A stretch of DNA of 64,000 bases from Limisphaerales bacterium. Lineage in GTDB: Bacteria; Verrucomicrobiota; Verrucomicrobiia; Limisphaerales; UBA11358. Shown here piece by piece: positions 11,564 to 45,019 of the stretch. The stretch lies in assembly GCA_003134375.1 (NCBI GenBank), contig PLAY01000065.1:158-64157 (forward strand), in the 5' to 3' direction. Below the pieces are notes generated by a model. It saw only the letters and a list, made by a program, of their open reading frames with translations, searched no databases and was not told the DNA's origin. Position numbers and translations under genes: made by a program. How positions within the stretch are numbered: the first letter of the stretch is position 1; each line of letters opens with the position of its first letter.

Positions 11564-14667
<3,104 letters not shown>

Positions 14668-14916
14668 TCGGGGAAATTACGGTTCACATCCGAAAAAAGC
14701 GAGTTGGAATTCCTTGCGCATGCAGAAAATACAGTGACGCAATAAGTCCACCGATGATTGCCAAACTGCTAAAACAATTCCAGGGTAAAACGATGGCAAA
14801 ATCCAGCGCCATTTTCCCATAAAATCAGCAGTGGTCGCGGGTTGGTGACGCCCCAATATGCGGCATAAGGCGGTCGGCATAACCACAATTCATAGTGTTT
14901 TTGGGCGTTTTTTTGA

Positions 14917-17538
<2,622 letters not shown>

Positions 17539-38456: not shown

Positions 38457-38672
38457 ATGGACATGACGGCAACGACGGTTATCGAAGAAATCAAACACCT
38501 GCCTCGCACGGAGCAATCTCGCGTGCTCCAATTTGCCTTTGAACTCGCGCGTGAGCGCCAACTCTCCGGAGAAGAATTAGCCATTCTCGCGCAGCGCATG
38601 GTTGAATCCGCAGACCCCGCCGAAGTCAAAAAATTGCGGGATGAAATCCATCGCGGCTTTTACGGCGAATAG
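38457..38672 (+). CDS. small antitoxin-like protein (DUF2281-like N-terminal motif)
   Basis: 71 aa. The motif VIEEIKHLPRTEQSRVLQFAFEL resembles the LP..EQ..V..F leader of DUF2281/addiction-module antidotes. There is a 2-nt gap to the next ORF. Confidence 0.5.
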   Translation: MDMTATTVIEEIKHLPRTEQSRVLQFAFELARERQLSGEELAILAQRMVESADPAEVKKLRDEIHRGFYGE

Positions 38673-38674
38673 CC

Positions 38675-38920
38675 ATGCCGCGAATTCGCCGTCACAATCT
38701 TCCGCCGCGCCTGCTCGATCATTTGCTCGACCGCGTCAGCAGTCGAAATATTTCCTCAGCGCAGCTTGGACTTTTGGCGGACTGGCTCCGCGCCGAACCC
38801 GAAGTGCCGACGGGCAAGTGGTTCAAGAAATTTCCCGGCATGACCGTTTGCGGCGAAGGCGAACTCATCAAAACCTTCTTACAGCTCGGCCAGACCGCCA
38901 CGGGCGAAGAATTAAATTAG
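38675..38920 (+). CDS. hypothetical 81-aa protein, partner of the antitoxin-like gene
   Basis: MPRIRRHNLPPRLLDHLL...KWFKKFPGMTVCGEGELIKTFL. Protein-like composition and tight coupling to the upstream ORF. Family not recognised. Confidence 0.5.
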   Translation: MPRIRRHNLPPRLLDHLLDRVSSRNISSAQLGLLADWLRAEPEVPTGKWFKKFPGMTVCGEGELIKTFLQLGQTATGEELN

Positions 38921-39371: not shown

Positions 39372-40502
39372 TTAAACCAGCTTTTTCAACTTCGCGTCCT
39401 CGGCCAGTTTTTTGACCAGTTCCTTGACCTTTTGCGCTTGGCTCTTGTGCGCCAGCAACACCGCGTCGTCGGTCTGCACCAGGATGGAATCGCGCAGGCC
39501 GACCACGGCAATGAGCGTGCGATTTTTTATGCGCGCATCAAAAATGATGTTCCGCGCCGCGTCCACGTGGATGAAATCCGCCACGGCGCAGTTCCCTTCC
39601 GGGTCGGCCTTGAGATGCCGCGCCAGCGCCGTCCAGGAACCGAGATCGTCCCACTCAAACGCGCCGTCGGCCACGATGACGTTCTGCGCATGCTCCATCA
39701 GCGCGTAATCAATCGAGATTTTTTTGATGCCGGGATATTCCTTCGCCAGCACCTTGGCGAGCTTTGCCGGCTGGTTTGCCACTTTGAACCAGCGCTGGCA
39801 GGCCGCATACATTGCCGGCTGATGTTTCTGCAAACCTTCCGTGATGGTCACAAACGACCAGACGAACATGCCGGCGTTCCAGCGATATTGGCCGCTGTTG
39901 ACGTATTCCAGCGCACGATCAAAATGCGGCTTCTCGACAAACTGTTCCGCCCGGAAAAATGTGGTTTTGTATTTCTTTGCGCCCGACGGCGGCGGCAACG
40001 CCTCGCCGACGTGGATGTAGCCGTAACCCGTCGCCGGCTCGGTCGGCTTGATGCCGATGGTCACAATCGCCTGACCGCGACTGGCGAGGTCGAAGGAGTC
40101 ATTCAAAACCTGCTGGAATTTTTTCTCGTCGGGAATGACGTGGTCGGCGGGCAAAACCGCCATGACGCCGGTCGTCGAACGCGCGCCCACCAGCGCCGCG
40201 CCGAGCGTAACAGCGGCGCAAGTGTCGCGGCCCACTGGCTCGGCAATCAGATTTTGTTTGGGGATTTTCGGAAGCTGTTTGCGGACCTCCGGCAATTGCA
40301 CCTCGTTGGTGATGACGAAAATGTTTTTGGCCGGCACCAGCGGCAGCACGCGGTCAACGGCCTGCTGGAGGAACGATCGTTTGCCGAGCAGCGGGAGCAG
40401 TTGCTTGGGCATTTTCTCGCGGCTCACCGGCCAGAACCGCTCGCCGCGCCCGCCCGCCATGATGATGACGAAGCGGTTTTTACTGTCCATTGATGCTTTC
40501 AT
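39372..40502 (-). CDS. manC: mannose-1-phosphate guanylyltransferase
   Basis: IIMAGGRGERFWPVSR nucleotidyl-transferase motif. 376 aa, with no C-terminal PMI/cupin domain. Confidence 0.8.
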   Translation of the reverse strand: MKASMDSKNRFVIIMAGGRGERFWPVSREKMPKQLLPLLGKRSFLQQAVDRVLPLVPAKNIFVITNEVQLPEVRKQLPKIPKQNLIAEPVGRDTCAAVTLGAALVGARSTTGVMAVLPADHVIPDEKKFQQVLNDSFDLASRGQAIVTIGIKPTEPATGYGYIHVGEALPPPSGAKKYKTTFFRAEQFVEKPHFDRALEYVNSGQYRWNAGMFVWSFVTITEGLQKHQPAMYAACQRWFKVANQPAKLAKVLAKEYPGIKKISIDYALMEHAQNVIVADGAFEWDDLGSWTALARHLKADPEGNCAVADFIHVDAARNIIFDARIKNRTLIAVVGLRDSILVQTDDAVLLAHKSQAQKVKELVKKLAEDAKLKKLV

Positions 40503-40710
40503 GGTTTCTGCCGATGATTAAGCGCGAAAAGCACCGGGAATTTCAATGCTAAACCGCGCTCATCCCGCCATCCCGATCAAGGCCAACCGCCCGGAAAGCC
40601 TCAGCCGCCGGAACCCTGTGGTTGGGCGTGGAAAAGGCGCTTTGTCGCTGACGGGTGGTGGCAATTGAACCGTTCTGGTTTGGGCTGAAGGTCCATCAAT
40701 TGCCCGCCAT

Positions 40711-40751
40711 AAAAAAGGTTCGACACGGGATGGCCTCCACATGGCGAACCT
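40711..40751 (-). terminator. possible intrinsic terminator downstream of gene A1
   Basis: The reverse strand reads AGGTTCG..(22-nt loop)..CGAACCT followed by TTTTTT. The large loop makes the call weak. Confidence 0.35.
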
Positions 40752-40784
40752 GATTTTCTAAATTTTGACGGCAACTAAATCAAC

Positions 40785-41591
40785 TTAATCAGTGCCGCTG
40801 TCCTTTCCACTCCCGCTCAAGCTGCCGGTGGTAATGATCCCGTCAATGTAGTAAAGGCCATTCGTTTGAGGATTGTTTTCACCGGAAACGTTCTTAATGC
40901 TAAACGAATACTTGTCGCCTTTGGAGCTGCTTGAAAAGCTCTGATTCATGGTTCCAAAGCCATAAATATTAAAAGCATAATTGAAATTTACGTTGTCATC
41001 GTATCCGTAGTCAAATTCCAAGTAAGCGTTACCAGTCATCGAACCCGAACCGCTGCTGCTCCCCGACTGGCCACTAAGCGGCCCATTGTCAACCTCGATG
41101 GAGAAACTCGCGTATGCATTAGATTGCCCTGCTGGGAGAAACGCATCCGCCGTGAGGGTGTCTAAAACAACCGTTTTGTTTGCTCCAAACACTTGAACCA
41201 CTTGGATCGGCCAATAGTCATTTTCAAAGTCGTAATTAGGATTATTTTGATAATCATTATAAAAATTGGTGGAATTCAGATAAATTTGCACCAGGTAATT
41301 GGTTTTACCCACTGTGGCGAAATAGTTTGTATTATTGTAAAAAGCCTGACCCAACAACCTCAACAAACCTTTATTGTCCAGTTTTGCCGTTTTGGTCTTG
41401 GCGATGTTGTTTGTGCCCTTGCTGGTGACACTGGCGTAATTGGTGGCTTGTTTCACCACCGTCATCGAAATATTCAACGATTGAACATCATTGAACTGAA
41501 ACGGCAACCTGCTTATTTGGGCCTGCATTTTGCCAACGCCAAACACCATCAACCCGAGTGCTGCCATAGCGCATAATTTGAATGTTTTCAT
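40785..41591 (-). CDS. secreted N/Y/S/G-rich protein, unknown family (module gene A1)
   Basis: Signal peptide MKTFKLCAMAALGLMVFGVGKMQAQ. AT-rich coding sequence. GS-rich acidic C-terminus SLSGSGKDSGTD. Distant collinear similarity to 42824..43510. Confidence 0.7.
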   Translation of the reverse strand: MKTFKLCAMAALGLMVFGVGKMQAQISRLPFQFNDVQSLNISMTVVKQATNYASVTSKGTNNIAKTKTAKLDNKGLLRLLGQAFYNNTNYFATVGKTNYLVQIYLNSTNFYNDYQNNPNYDFENDYWPIQVVQVFGANKTVVLDTLTADAFLPAGQSNAYASFSIEVDNGPLSGQSGSSSGSGSMTGNAYLEFDYGYDDNVNFNYAFNIYGFGTMNQSFSSSSKGDKYSFSIKNVSGENNPQTNGLYYIDGIITTGSLSGSGKDSGTD

Positions 41592-41656
41592 TGTAGTGCT
41601 CCAATTATTTGCCTGGTTGTTAATTTAATGTCTTGCTTATTTCTTCAATTATCCAA

Positions 41657-41685
41657 ACTTTAAATTTTACTAAATTACATGTCAA
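41657..41685 (-). promoter_or_regulatory. sigma70-like promoter for A1
   Basis: Reverse strand TTGACA (41685-41680), a 17-nt spacer, then TAAAGT (41662-41657). About 65 nt upstream of the ATG, with a GGAG Shine-Dalgarno motif before the start. Confidence 0.4.
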
Positions 41686-41712
41686 CAACGATTTTGCCCG
41701 CACTTTTCATAA

Positions 41713-41957
41713 AGGGCGCATCTTAGTTTTTGAGCGGGGTGTCGCGCCATTGAAAGCCCCTGTGTTTACAGCCCTTTCATTAACACCCGGCTTTAGCTGG
41801 GTGTTTGCCGGTGTCGCGGGTCGGAACCGCTTGAGCGGTTTATCGGCACACGGGAAACCGCTCAAGCGGTTGGCGGGCCTTCCCTTCGCTGAACACCCCG
41901 GTAAAGCAGGGTGTTAATAAGATGCGGTTTCCAAGTGCATAAAAACTGAGATGCGCC
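41713..41957. mobile_element. composite MITE (same architecture as 30320-30530), diverged copy
   Basis: Outer arms GGGCGCATCTTAGTTTTTGAGC (41713-41734) / GCATAAAAACTGAGATGCGCC (41937-41957). Inner arms TTCATTAACACCCGGCTTTAGCTGGGTG (41776-41803) / CACCCCGGTAAAGCAGGGTGTTAATAAG (41894-41921). Internal hairpin AACCGCTTGAGCGGTT. Confidence 0.75.
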
Positions 41958-42024
41958 TTTTTTAAAACCCAATCCAAGCTTGGCGTTGCGGTCTTGGATT
42001 TTTTGTTTATGCTGGGGAACACTT

Positions 42025-42534
42025 ATGAGACCGAAATTCATTTTTGCGCTGTTGCTGCTGGCGTTGCTGGTATTGGGTGCGGCTTTCCTTTTCAAACAAC
42101 ATTGGGAAAACGCCGCCCCGCCTCCTTCGGTCAATGAATCTGTGACTTCGGCTCCAGTGGTGAGTGCCGCCCCGCCATCCGCACCCGCCCCCGTTCCCGC
42201 CGCGCCAGTCTCCACCAATGTTCTGACACCCGAACAACGTCAAACCGCCATTGACGCCGAAACCGACCGCCTTCAGCAATGGTCCATGAATGACGATCCG
42301 GCATCGCTCTCAAATATCCTGGCCGACCTGACTAATCCTGAAAAAGAAATCCGGGACGCAGCCATCGAGGCCGCCAAGCAGTTCGGCAGCACCAACGCCA
42401 TCCCCACCTTGAAAGCCGTGGCCGCGAACACGACTGATACCGAGGAACAGATCGCCCTGCTCGAAGCCGCCAATTTTCTTTCGCTGCCCCCGGTTGACTT
42501 CAGCCAGCCGACCTCACCCAAAACCCGGCAGTAA
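42025..42534 (+). CDS. membrane-anchored Pro/Ala-rich + HEAT-like repeat protein (module gene B1)
   Basis: ATG 42025 gives MRPKFIFALLLLALLVLGAAFLF (a TM anchor), then a PA-rich spacer, then EKEIRDAAIEAAKQFGSTNAIPTLK (HEAT/PBS-lyase-like). The C-terminal ~95 aa are about 80 percent identical to B2. Confidence 0.7.
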   Translation: MRPKFIFALLLLALLVLGAAFLFKQHWENAAPPPSVNESVTSAPVVSAAPPSAPAPVPAAPVSTNVLTPEQRQTAIDAETDRLQQWSMNDDPASLSNILADLTNPEKEIRDAAIEAAKQFGSTNAIPTLKAVAANTTDTEEQIALLEAANFLSLPPVDFSQPTSPKTRQ

Positions 42535-42543
42535 ATTCGGGCC

Positions 42544-42620
42544 TCAGCGCAGCAAACCAAGGAAGCGCGCCAAAACAGGCTTCAAAAAGGCACCCACGCG
42601 TTTCACCGGTTCCGGCGCCC
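42544..42620 (-). pseudogene. remnant of a trpA 3' end
   Basis: The reverse strand encodes APEPVKRVGAFLKPVLA...*, compared with intact TrpA QSPELVKRVGAFVKSLVSAVKDL*. The 25-nt core CCCACGCGTTTCACCGGTTCCGGCG (42593-42617) differs at 1 nt from 44271-44295. It occupies the same position relative to the B-gene stop. Confidence 0.6.
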
Positions 42621-42712
42621 CGGCCGGCACCCAAGTTGAGACGAAATCTTCGTTCCCGAGGCCGTGTCGGGACGGACTCAACCGCAACCGCCGGGAACAT
42701 GATAATTCCTTG

Positions 42713-42740
42713 TTGACAAAACCGGCCATCATTATAAAAT
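42713..42740 (+). promoter_or_regulatory. sigma70-like promoter for A2-B2
   Basis: TTGACA (42713-42718), a 16-nt spacer, then TAAAAT (42735-42740). About 80 nt upstream of the A2 ATG. Confidence 0.45.
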
Positions 42741-42823
42741 ACTTTTCAAGCTCAGCTTATTTTAAGCTGAAGAGGAAAAGTCGGTGGACGTTAAAAATTA
42801 ACTAAACAACGAAAATAAACAAT

Positions 42824-43510
42824 ATGAAATTAACCAAAATACTGATGTGCGCATTGGCCGTGGGAGCGATGGTTTTCGCTACCGACCAAGCTCAGGCAAA
42901 ATCAACCCTGGTCATTGATGGCTCCCTTTATGTTCCGATAAATCTCAAGGGGACTTTCACTTATGTCAATAGTAAGGACAAGATAGCAACAAAAACCGTC
43001 ACTACCAAACAGATCATAAGTCAGTTGGATTACGCCAAAGGCACCATGCTGGCCATTGGCCCCGGAACCGGTACTAACAATTTCTATGGTTACACTAACA
43101 ATGTCGATGTTTACGCCATCAATAATGGCGTAGTAGTATATGACCTTTCTGCGGGTGGTTATTTTCATGTCAACATGTCCGATACTCTTGACACGTCAAC
43201 AGGCGATTTTCCCATGACAAAAAGGACATATTCCGAGGTTGGCGTAGTCACTATTGATTTTGCCAGCAGTCATAACCTCGTAACTCTAACAGCCAATAAC
43301 TTCGCGTTTAACCTCACCGGCACTTATACCTATAATGAAAGTGATTCGGCGGTGGTCGGCGGCTTCTACAAACAGTCTTCAAAATTCAGTTCTAAAAACC
43401 TTGGCGGCCTCTCTTACGTCGATGAAGTGGACGGAATCATTGTGAACGAAACCATGCCCGTTAGCGGCAGTGCTTCCGGCAGCGCTTCCGGCAGCGGAGT
43501 GGAAGATTAA
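42824..43510 (+). CDS. secreted N/T/S/G-rich protein, unknown family (module gene A2)
   Basis: Signal peptide MKLTKILMCALAVGAMVFATDQAQA. AT-rich coding sequence. C-terminus SGSASGSASGSGVED. Shares the motifs NNFAFN and G.SYVD..GII with A1. Confidence 0.7.
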   Translation: MKLTKILMCALAVGAMVFATDQAQAKSTLVIDGSLYVPINLKGTFTYVNSKDKIATKTVTTKQIISQLDYAKGTMLAIGPGTGTNNFYGYTNNVDVYAINNGVVVYDLSAGGYFHVNMSDTLDTSTGDFPMTKRTYSEVGVVTIDFASSHNLVTLTANNFAFNLTGTYTYNESDSAVVGGFYKQSSKFSSKNLGGLSYVDEVDGIIVNETMPVSGSASGSASGSGVED

Positions 43511-43599
43511 TCACAGTTTTGGCAGCATTCAGACCGGTCCAAAATGGCTTGAGGCTGTTTTGGATCGGTTTTTTGCTTGGTTAAATGATTCGAGAAAAT

Positions 43600-44196
43600 A
43601 TGAGGCTTAAAATCGTCAGCTTGATCCTGCTGGCCGGCTTGGCTGGCGTAACTGGTATTCTTTTGATAAAACATCAGGGGGCACCTCCTCCGGCGGCGGC
43701 TCCAATCGCCATTATTGAAACCAAACCCGCCGCACCCCAAACTGCTCCCCCCATCACGAATGTCCCGCCACCCGCAACGGCGCCCGTCGCCGCTGCGCCG
43801 GTTGCCACCAACGCCCTGACGCCCGAACAGCGCCAGGCGGCCATTGACGCCGAGACCGACCGCCTCCAGCAATGGTCCATGAACGACGATCCGGCCTCCC
43901 TGTCCAGCATCCTGGCCGACCTGACCAACTCCGAAAAAGAGGTTCGGAAAGCCGCCATTGAAGCTGCCGAACAGTTCGGCAGCACCAATGCAATCCCTGT
44001 TTTGAAAAACCTGGCGGCCAACGATGAAGACCCCGAAGAAAAAGCCGCCCTGCTTGAAGCCGCCAATTTTCTTTCGCTGCCCAGCATCTTCGATGTCGGC
44101 CAGCCAGCCACTCCAGCCGAAAGGGAGGCCCACAGGCAGGCTCAAATGCAAAAGCATTCACAAAACCAAAATTCACCAGTTGCGCCCAATAATTGA
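43600..44196 (+). CDS. membrane-anchored Pro/Ala-rich + HEAT-like repeat protein (module gene B2)
   Basis: MRLKIVSLILLAGLAGVTGILLI anchor (alternative ATG at 43585), PA-rich spacer, and a conserved LTPEQRQAAIDAETDRLQQWSMNDDPASLS...FGSTNAIPVLK block. Paralog of B1. Confidence 0.7.
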   Translation: MRLKIVSLILLAGLAGVTGILLIKHQGAPPPAAAPIAIIETKPAAPQTAPPITNVPPPATAPVAAAPVATNALTPEQRQAAIDAETDRLQQWSMNDDPASLSSILADLTNSEKEVRKAAIEAAEQFGSTNAIPVLKNLAANDEDPEEKAALLEAANFLSLPSIFDVGQPATPAEREAHRQAQMQKHSQNQNSPVAPNN

Positions 44197-44218
44197 AGCA
44201 CGGAATCCCGTTTTTGAT

Positions 44219-45019
44219 TCACAAATCCTTCACTGCCGACACCAGCGACTTCACAAACGCGCCCACGCGTTTCACCAGTTCCGGCGATTGGCCGTGTTTG
44301 GCAATCTGATTCACCACCGCGCTGCCCACCACCACGGCGTCCGCATTTTGCGCCACCAGCCCGGCTTGTTCCGGATTTGAGATGCCGAAGCCCACGGCCA
44401 CCGGCAACCGCGTGTGCGCGCGGATTTTGCCGACCTGCTGCGCCAGGTTCGCCGCGACCCGCGCCTGCATGCCCGTCACCCCTTCCCGCGAGATGTAATA
44501 AATGAACCCGGCGCCGCGTTTCACGATAAATTCAATCCGGTCTTCCGGCGTCGTCGGCGCGACGAGATAAATGTGGCACAAACCGGCCCGGCGCATCAGC
44601 GATTCGTAATTATCCGATTCCTCCGGCGGCAAATCCAGCACCAGCATGCCGTCCACGCCCGCCTTCGCCGCAGTTTTGATGAATCGCTCCAGGCCGACGC
44701 GATGGATGAGGTTGAAATAAATGTAGAGAACGATCGGGATTTGCGAATCGCGCCGGATCGCCGCCACGGTCTTTAAAACCCTCGGCGGCGTGGCACCGGA
44801 TTCCAAGCCGCGCTGCGCGGCAAGCTGGTTCACCAAGCCGTCGGCGAGCGGATCGCTGAATGGCACGCCCAGTTCCAGCACGTCCACGCCCGCCTGGTCA
44901 AAGGCGAGCGCGAGCCGGCGCGTGGCCTTCAAATCCGGATCGCCCGCGCCGATGTAGACGATGAAACCCTTTTTGCCCTCGCGCTTCAGGCGCACAAAAC
45001 GTTCCACGATGCGGTTCAT
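44219..45019 (-). CDS. trpA: tryptophan synthase alpha chain
   Basis: LELGVPFSDPLADG, YISREGVTG and GFGIS motifs. 266 aa. Confidence 0.93.
   Translation of the reverse strand: MNRIVERFVRLKREGKKGFIVYIGAGDPDLKATRRLALAFDQAGVDVLELGVPFSDPLADGLVNQLAAQRGLESGATPPRVLKTVAAIRRDSQIPIVLYIYFNLIHRVGLERFIKTAAKAGVDGMLVLDLPPEESDNYESLMRRAGLCHIYLVAPTTPEDRIEFIVKRGAGFIYYISREGVTGMQARVAANLAQQVGKIRAHTRLPVAVGFGISNPEQAGLVAQNADAVVVGSAVVNQIAKHGQSPELVKRVGAFVKSLVSAVKDL

Follow-up and report, generated by a model that had tools for sequence, protein, structure and literature searches.

A recurring gene pair for a fast-changing exported protein and a membrane-anchored HEAT-like protein in uncultured Limisphaerales

Introduction

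To our knowledge, few Verrucomicrobiota of the Limisphaerales/Pedosphaerales type are in culture, and next to no work has been done on their cell envelopes. We describe here four genes, two of a type that we call A and two of a type that we call B, in one 64-kb stretch of a Limisphaerales genome, G000 (the whole stretch is "the window" throughout; relatives are coded G0xx, their loci L0xx and contigs Cxx). A is a secreted protein rich in Asn, Tyr, Ser, Thr and Gly, and B is a protein with a membrane anchor, a Pro/Ala spacer and a HEAT-like domain. The two form a canonical unit, all on one strand: a near-consensus sigma-70 promoter, a long AT-rich leader, A, a strong terminator hairpin, some ~25–35 nt and then B. 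In the genomes sampled, this unit is restricted to one lineage of uncultured soil and peat Limisphaerales, and it lies outside the known kinds of system represented in Pfam-A, NCBIfam, PADLOC, PHROGs, the PDB and BFVD.

The genes at the locus

A preliminary description of the window gave four open reading frames (ORFs) and a near-consensus promoter for each A gene; the ORF list of the window places all four at the same coordinates, and both promoters are present. The locus, flanked by bipA, manC (minus strand), trpA (minus strand) and aroC (plus strand), reads as follows.

40690..40784, minus strand: terminator-like hairpin and U-run 3' of A1 (fold −35.2 kcal/mol, z = −4.1 against shuffles)
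40785..41591, minus strand: A1, ORF of 268 aa, Sec-exported, N/Y/S/T/G-rich, a divergent member of the A superfamily
41657..41685, minus strand: A1 promoter, TTGACA-17-TAAAGT (sequence motif)
41713..41957, no strand: palindromic repeat resembling a miniature inverted-repeat transposable element (MITE), lying between the promoter of A1 and the stub 5' of B1 (self inverted match 41779–41918)
41958..42024, plus strand: A-to-B spacer stub with a decayed terminator hairpin, stem 41971–42000, then a T-run (homology to G052)
42025..42534, plus strand: B1, ORF of 169 aa, transmembrane (TM) anchor, Pro/Ala spacer and HEAT-like domain (HEAT_2, 24.5 bits)
42544..42620, minus strand: remnant of the 3' end of trpA (translation and nucleotide match to trpA)
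42713..42740, plus strand: A2 promoter, TTGACA-16-TAAAAT (sequence motif), followed by an 83-nt AT-rich leader
42824..43510, plus strand: A2, ORF of 228 aa, Sec-exported, all-beta, founding member of the best-sampled A family
43531..43577, plus strand: intrinsic terminator/attenuator hairpin between A2 and B2, 19-bp stem and T-run (−32.7 kcal/mol, z = −4.0)
43600..44196, plus strand: B2, ORF of 198 aa, TM anchor at ~residues 5–24, Pro/Ala spacer of ~55 aa, HEAT_2 domain and Q/N-rich tail

Composition sets the A genes apart. Their coding DNA is indeed AT-richer than its surroundings, with a GC content of 0.44 in A1 and 0.46 in A2 against 0.58–0.62 in the flanks, and GC content at third codon positions (GC3) follows the same order, at 0.51–0.54 in the A genes (A1 0.54), 0.62–0.65 in the B genes and 0.75–0.78 in the flanks. 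Because GC3 is low as well, amino-acid composition alone does not account for the AT-richness of A. No credible Rfam match is found at 40300–44400.

The A proteins had been described as lacking cysteine, which is true of their mature parts but not of their signal peptides, where each has a single Cys (C7 in A1, C9 in A2). C9 is almost invariant in the A2 family. Signal-peptide cysteines at positions 7–9, found across that family and in A1 (as at window 42824–42898), lie too near the N-terminus for a lipobox.

Conservation of the unit

Of 100 other genomes of the same GTDB genus/family, 33 have B; among 300 sampled elsewhere in the phylum, none does. The A2 protein can be detected in 12 of 100 same-genus genomes, and the A2-family profile finds one weak match in the 300 from elsewhere in the phylum. 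Taking as A-type any gene whose product has a signal peptide, 200–270 aa, an N+Y+S+T+G content of 38–45 % and the superfamily motifs given below, we find a co-directional A-type gene 63–210 nt upstream (mostly 74–96 nt) of 25 of the 33 non-redundant B genes. Conservation of A-B adjacency in related genomes, a check proposed with the preliminary description, is thereby borne out. The other eight B genes comprise three with uncertain secreted proteins upstream, two B-B tandems, two with unrelated neighbours (one of these B genes is broken) and one at a contig edge. Adjacency persists even where B is only ~33 % identical (L044 and L048).

The number of genes per array is variable. Several A genes may share one B, as in the array A-A-A-B of G018; units may follow one another, as in G052, where manC is followed by A-B-A'-B; and in a Limisphaerales metagenome-assembled genome (MAG; L017) the series A-B-x-A-A-B-A-B lies between bipA-manC and trpA-aroC. 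The site between manC and trpA recurs in many genomes. At L033 (G048:C96) and L034 (G084:C47), two B genes stand in direct tandem behind one A-type gene, so that B can evidently also duplicate alone.

The signals between and before the genes are conserved as well. When A-to-B spacers were folded, all 20 (19 from relatives, and that of the window) gave a hairpin of 12–19 bp, at −26 to −36 kcal/mol, with a T-run. The stem sequences differ between A/B types, and it is thus structure that is conserved in these spacers. Upstream of A, 11 of 26 loci have a perfect TTGACA followed by a 16-nt spacer, 80–97 nt before the start codon, whereas only 2.5 % of 250-nt stretches taken at random from the G000 genome carry such a site. 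Near-consensus promoters like those of the window thus recur upstream of A genes.

Protein A: one superfamily without a known relative

Scans with Pfam, NCBIfam, PADLOC and PHROGs give no match for A1 or A2, and neither belongs to a known anti-phage or phage family as covered by the last two libraries. Seven further A types from relatives likewise bring up no Pfam family over its cut-off, the sole match being to M2AP_beta_dom at 20.6 bits against a cut-off of 27, and a search of the PDB by sequence profile gives nothing under E 1.8. Among 5.8 billion proteins, A2 has 39 relatives, every one of them labelled hypothetical and all from Verrucomicrobiota or Limisphaerales MAGs and metagenomes (JGI, ENA, NCBI environmental); A1 has only 6 clusters of relatives in the same number of proteins. 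A profile search with A2 in 1.8 billion representatives gathers 121 clusters at 50 % identity, with intact ORFs.

The two A proteins of the window are only weakly alike in pairwise comparison (BLASTP E 0.025), and A1 ranks fourth of 35,842 genome ORFs against the A2-family hidden Markov model, yet at E 0.37. Compared as profiles, the A1 and A2 families align end to end over 203 columns (hhalign probability 95.8 %, E 7.3e-9). The short collinear motifs that the preliminary description had picked out are, on this evidence, homologous and not due to chance. Judged by profiles and shared motifs, all A types, A1 included, belong to one superfamily with very divergent branches, and A1 and A2 are ancient paralogues rather than the products of a recent duplication. 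Common to all A types are an N-terminal motif, K-x-K-h-T-x-K-D-h-L-N-x-L ... P-x-G-a-x-L, and a C-terminal one, (V/I)(T/S)G...SG(K)G.

The A-family signal peptide and N-terminal domain are carried by only four ORFs of the G000 genome (A2, A1 and one each on contigs C24 and C201), a number that rules out the shared signal peptide as the mark of a large regulon. The C201 gene (C201:34227–34895, plus strand; L054) encodes a stand-alone protein of 218 aa whose signal peptide and N-terminal portion are of the A family (E 2.9e-7 to the A2 profile) but whose C-terminal half is different and Pro-rich; it has no B neighbour. The C24 gene (C24:1324–3396, plus strand; L055) encodes a secreted protein of 691 aa in which an A-like N-terminal domain is followed by two Big_5 Ig-like domains and, at the C-terminus, by an Ice_binding domain (PF11999); here, too, there is no B gene nearby. 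A metagenomic relative, P0082, also consists of an A domain and a C-terminal Ice_binding domain. Since B nearly always stands behind A while A can stand without B, B looks like an accessory partner.

That the A domain can serve as the N-terminal module of DUF3494/Ice_binding proteins (P0082, the C24 ORF) invites the view that A is a soluble exported module binding ice, glycans or mineral surfaces, that B retains a fraction of it at the membrane, and that the variability of A mirrors the diversity of its ligands. Strands rich in T-x-T and T-x-N, which can be read in the A sequences (TFTYV, TKTVTT, TGTYTYN), and the origin of A2 relatives in environmental metagenomes would agree with such a role. 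In A1 and A2, on the other hand, the A domain stands alone, with no PF11999 domain found within either by Pfam, and a fusion does not transfer function. The data point to no ligand, and the strict terminator-B design would be left unexplained. We consider a binding module of this kind unlikely.

The predicted structure of A

The AlphaFold2 (AF2) model of A2, built on an alignment of 29 sequences, is compact and all-beta, with a predicted local distance difference test score (pLDDT) of 83.7 and a predicted template-modelling score (pTM) of 0.78. Five long strands of 13–23 residues make up its C-terminal part, the Gly/Ser tail being the last of them. The corresponding model of A1, from only six sequences, is poor (pLDDT 34) and was not used. 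This confident model of A2, taken together with the intact ORFs of the 121 clusters, argues that A is a real folded protein.

Against the PDB, Foldseek finds nothing at E <= 1e-3 for the A2 model, and template-modelling (TM) scores are <= 0.27. The top matches, all weak, are to OmpW, OpcA, OmpA, OprF, NspA and Pla, with probabilities up to 0.92; the best is OmpW, at E 3.4e-3 and a TM-score of 0.27/0.33. Against BFVD there is one match at E 4.7e-4 but with a TM-score of 0.20, scores are <= 0.26 throughout, and the weak matches include phage-encoded outer-membrane protein (OMP) barrels. The modelled fold of A2 is accordingly without a match in the two collections searched. Library scans, structure prediction for A2 and Foldseek against the PDB and BFVD, checks that had been set out in advance, have all failed to give A a family.

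The identity of these weak matches raises the question of whether A might be a small integral outer-membrane beta-barrel, porin- or adhesin-like with variable loops, B then being an inner-membrane tether comparable to TonB or TolA. The A2 model does share with OmpW, OpcA, OmpA and OprF a long antiparallel beta meander, some members of the family end in Tyr or Phe, and the proteins in which passenger-like Big_5 and Ice_binding domains come after an A domain recall inverse autotransporters. The TM-scores never exceed 0.27, however, and the strands themselves seem ill-suited to a lipid bilayer: as read from the sequence of A2, K183, K187 and K191 lie on one side of a strand with Y/Q/S/F/S/N on the other, residues 213–226 oppose an all-Ser face to a Gly/Ala face, and in each of the last three long strands both faces are unsuited to contact with lipid. 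Polar or small-residue faces on such long strands argue against an integral membrane barrel. Nor is a C-terminal aromatic beta-signal conserved, A2 ending in VED and its relatives in VIY, VVD, VAE or VVP among others, with many of them ending in D, E or P, and neither A1, A2 nor the seven A types of relatives match any OMP family in Pfam. By fold, beta-signal and hydrophobic faces alike, A does not match outer-membrane beta-barrels of the known kind, and we hold the tethered-barrel view to be decidedly improbable.

Protein B: a HEAT domain on a TonB-like stalk

The B proteins begin with a hydrophobic anchor of 19–20 residues, continue with a Pro/Ala spacer and end in the HEAT domain; for B2, the start at 43600 is backed by homologues that begin MRPK.... 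B2 belongs to HEAT_2 (PF13646) at 32.8 bits (E 8.5e-8), over the gathering cut-off of 27.7, while B1 at 24.5 bits falls under it. At least 272 relatives of B2 exist, most with a precomputed PF13646 match. Overall, B1 and B2 share 59 % identity (E 5e-55); over a helical block of ~88 aa the figure, by hand count on the alignment, is ~84 %, in agreement with the about 80 percent first given for this block.

Neither A nor B had at first been placed in a family. For A this stands, no library having yielded a match, but B does match HEAT_2, if only as a generic repeat and not as a functional assignment. HEAT_2/PBS-lyase HEAT-like repeats occur mostly in cytoplasmic proteins, unlike B. Scans with Pfam and NCBIfam return generic HEAT only, with no TonB_C (PF03544) at E <= 1, and those with PHROGs and PADLOC a weak generic HEAT-ARM match alone (1.4e-4 to 1.7e-3). 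None of these four libraries holds a model for a membrane-anchored, Pro-spacer, two-repeat HEAT protein with a secreted partner.

The nearest analogy is with the TonB and TolA anchors, in which, as in B, a short N-terminal stretch precedes one TM helix, an extended Pro/Ala-rich spacer (~55 aa) and a small C-terminal globular domain, a layout fit for reaching a partner in the envelope. The C-terminal domain of B, however, is HEAT_2 and not TonB_C or TolA_C; no ExbBD or TolQR genes adjoin it in the two stretches inspected for them, the window and the related locus of 16 kb; and B sits downstream of the gene for a secreted protein. B is therefore no member of the TonB family, and the likeness extends to the layout of anchor and Pro-rich spacer alone.

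Rates of change in A and B

Rates of substitution were compared between G000 and G052, G087 and G099, and are given in that order. For A2, the ratio of non-synonymous to synonymous rates (dN/dS) is 0.70, 0.88 and 1.05, at amino-acid identities of 71, 51 and 44 %; for B2 it is 0.24, 0.27 and 0.32. In the neighbouring genes, it amounts to 0.07–0.10 (manC) and 0.16–0.20 (trpA). Synonymous divergence is alike in A2, B2, manC and trpA, with dS at 0.2–0.5, and the similar dS beside a raised dN/dS indicates that A is orthologous at the locus and that its protein is diverging far faster. The A protein changes ~3 times faster than B and 4–10 times faster than the neighbours. In windows of 40 codons along A2, for which estimates are noisy, dN/dS exceeds 1 at ~aa 95–190 and is lowest over the signal peptide.

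The DNA upstream of A2 and that of its signal peptide (42580–42879) are 81 % identical to those of a different A type in G052, a shared 5' segment that points to cassette-like exchange between conserved flanks.

A dN/dS near 1 together with a low GC3 is also what one might expect if the A genes were decaying, functionless, lineage-specific ORFs under relaxed constraint, their adjacency to B being mere inherited synteny. One unit of the window has visibly lost its A gene, as set out below, and B pseudogenes occur in G013 and G022. Decay is nonetheless difficult to reconcile with ORFs that stay intact across 121 clusters at 50 % identity, with the confident and compact structure prediction for A2, with the retention of signal peptide, N- and C-terminal motifs, promoter and terminator across very divergent types, or with an adjacency kept even at the ~33 % B identity of L044 and L048. 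We find this explanation hardly credible.

B, for its part, does not track the variability of A. The HEAT blocks of B1 and B2 are ~84 % identical while the partner A types are <25 % identical, and B1-type genes pair with two different A types, A' and A3 (in G052, G017, G014, G028 and G087). These observations bear most directly on the notion of an antagonism module, in which A would be a bacteriocin-like or beta-pore-forming toxin and B its membrane-anchored immunity protein. A small, beta-rich, fast-evolving secreted protein with a membrane-anchored partner encoded downstream, in divergent tandem copies of low GC3, does follow the pattern of polymorphic toxins, and the long beta-hairpins and S/T-rich strands of A recall toxins of the aerolysin/ETX type, with Dln1 and a lamprey aerolysin-like protein among the weak Foldseek matches in the PDB. 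Immunity proteins, though, normally co-vary with their toxins, whereas the B HEAT blocks stay ~80 % identical against <25 % for the A types; a single B type pairs with two A types, and several A genes may be served by one B, as in G018. The aerolysin-like chains, moreover, have a Foldseek probability of only ~0.1 and TM-scores of 0.13–0.14, and A has no toxin match in Pfam or PADLOC, so that neither by sequence nor by fold does A match the aerolysin or ETX-MTX2 toxins. A toxin-immunity pair is, in our estimation, improbable.

Origin of the divergent A1/B1 arrangement

The preliminary description spoke of a duplicated two-gene module, present once divergently and once co-directionally, and took the pairing to suggest a functional unit. 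The co-directional A-B pair is conserved, as shown above, but the divergent A1/B1 pair is a product of rearrangement; and duplication, which holds for the B genes, does not hold for the anciently separated A1 and A2.

The evidence lies on both sides of B1. Upstream, homology to the terminator-plus-B1-type segment that G052 and G017 carry has a sharp edge at 41958, and from there to 42344 the window matches the terminator-plus-B segment in G052 (L023 3195–3582) at 87 % identity. The hairpin of this stub is now weak, at −13.5 kcal/mol as against −26.6 in G052. This terminator stub 5' of B1 is what is left of a lost upstream A gene and its spacer, and the place of that gene is now taken by the MITE-like repeat (41713–41957) and the oppositely oriented A1; no coding remnant of the lost gene is found 5' of B1 by tblastn with six A'/A3 proteins. 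The MITE-like repeat also has diverged copies, of ~70–86 % identity, on contigs C8, C2, C50, C183, C18 and C82 of the same genome.

Directly 3' of B1 lies a remnant of trpA, the minus strand of which reads PEPVKRVGAFLKPVL where TrpA has PELVKRVGAFVKSLV; over 38 nt, 42580–42617 is 89.5 % identical to 44249–44286 in trpA. The remnant mirrors the end of the intact trpA that lies after B2, which implies that the B-trpA junction was duplicated when A2-B2 came between B1 and trpA. Segmental duplication is shown by the B genes and this trpA 3' fragment only.

As for A1, its closest relatives beyond near-identical strains (58–62 % identity) stand alone, without B; one of them adjoins an extracytoplasmic function (ECF)-type sigma gene and another an IS3-family transposase and RHS genes. 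Terminator stub, trpA remnant and stand-alone A1 relatives together indicate that the divergent A1/B1 "pair" is secondary and that A2-B2 is the canonical unit. On the alternative that A1 is the original partner of B1, inverted where it stands, a jackhmmer search with A1 does pick up the A gene that precedes a B1-type gene in G038 (E 3.7e-12); compared pairwise, this G038 gene and A1 have only a 33-aa patch in common (E 1e-4).

An abundant envelope protein and its adaptor?

A role at the cell envelope, as the preliminary description had it, is plausible in view of the signal peptide that A carries and of the TM anchor and Pro-rich spacer of B. The reading that we favour, with a probability of roughly 0.4, makes A an envelope or surface protein that is abundant and diversifying, and B a low-level adaptor that spans the periplasm. 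The strong promoter and the terminator of its own would cause A to be made in large amounts, and its Sec signal peptide would lead to its export. At the cell envelope or surface, A may then act as a structural or binding protein and face diversifying selection, exerted by phages, grazers or competitors, for instance. Since the hairpin would pass only a fraction of transcripts, B would be made at a low level by read-through. B would reside in the inner membrane, with its HEAT domain reaching into the periplasm on the TonB-like Pro/Ala spacer, and would recognise a feature common to all A types, the best candidate for which is the C-terminal (V/I)(T/S)G...SGKG/GSGSG beta-hairpin; by this contact it might retain A, chaperone it or hand it over for assembly. 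New A types could be swapped in by recombination between the conserved 5' segment (promoter, leader and signal peptide) and the equally conserved 3' segment (terminator and B).

Several points weigh against this proposal. The gene-wide dN/dS of A, near 1, might equally reflect relaxed constraint. The topology of B rests only on the positive-inside rule, and the charge pattern is a weak guide here, with MRPK before the helix and K/H/R after it. B could have a promoter of its own. There are no secretion or assembly genes near the A/B locus, and the A1/B1 arrangement of the window departs from the canonical design. The statement that A has no fold match covers the PDB and BFVD only. A literature search on Limisphaerales/Pedosphaerales expression or metaproteomes found nothing relevant.

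Among known systems, the closest in logic are the operons of surface appendages, in which a gene for a major subunit is followed by an attenuator and an accessory gene, as with the type IV pilin gene pilA and its allele-linked accessory gene, or with fimA and papA. The A/B unit shares with these a strong promoter, a hypervariable exported major protein, a terminator directly after it and a conserved accessory gene expressed at a lower level (the levels of A and B being those predicted from promoter and hairpin), and in both cases several divergent paralogues may lie in tandem. A has no class III pilin signal, however, and there is no chaperone, usher, ATPase or sortase gene nearby; the fold of A is unmatched in the PDB and BFVD, and any polymerisation of A would be purely hypothetical.

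With these differences in mind, it is possible, though we think it doubtful, that the A/B arrays make up a new surface-coat or fibre system of one Limisphaerales lineage. The A proteins would then be the abundant outermost subunits, with a new all-beta fold and perhaps joined via the Gly/Ser C-terminal strand; the variants with Ice_binding and Big_5 extensions would be tips or adhesins; A cassettes would be exchanged as a means of escape from phages or grazers; and B would be a dedicated factor that spans the periplasm for their assembly or anchoring.

A dN/dS of ~1 beside housekeeping genes at ~0.1 places A among the clearest signatures of diversifying evolution in the neighbourhood. Should A prove to be an exposed major envelope protein, it is likely to be the interface of this lineage with phages and grazers, and in metagenomes it would readily serve to mark strain-level diversity. 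B, if rightly read as a periplasmic adaptor on a TonB-like stalk, would represent a new use of the HEAT domain. Should it turn out to be a toxin or a binding protein, A would remain a new protein family whose partner is defined, and either way the locus provides a testable way into the surface biology of an uncultured group.

Other features of the neighbourhood

Two observations concern the genes around the locus. At L017, a 240-aa PEP-CTERM protein is encoded at 14654–15376, between trpA and aroC, where the gap in the window is 170 nt. In the window itself, two small ORFs of 71 and 81 aa lie 2 nt apart at 38457–38920 on the plus strand.

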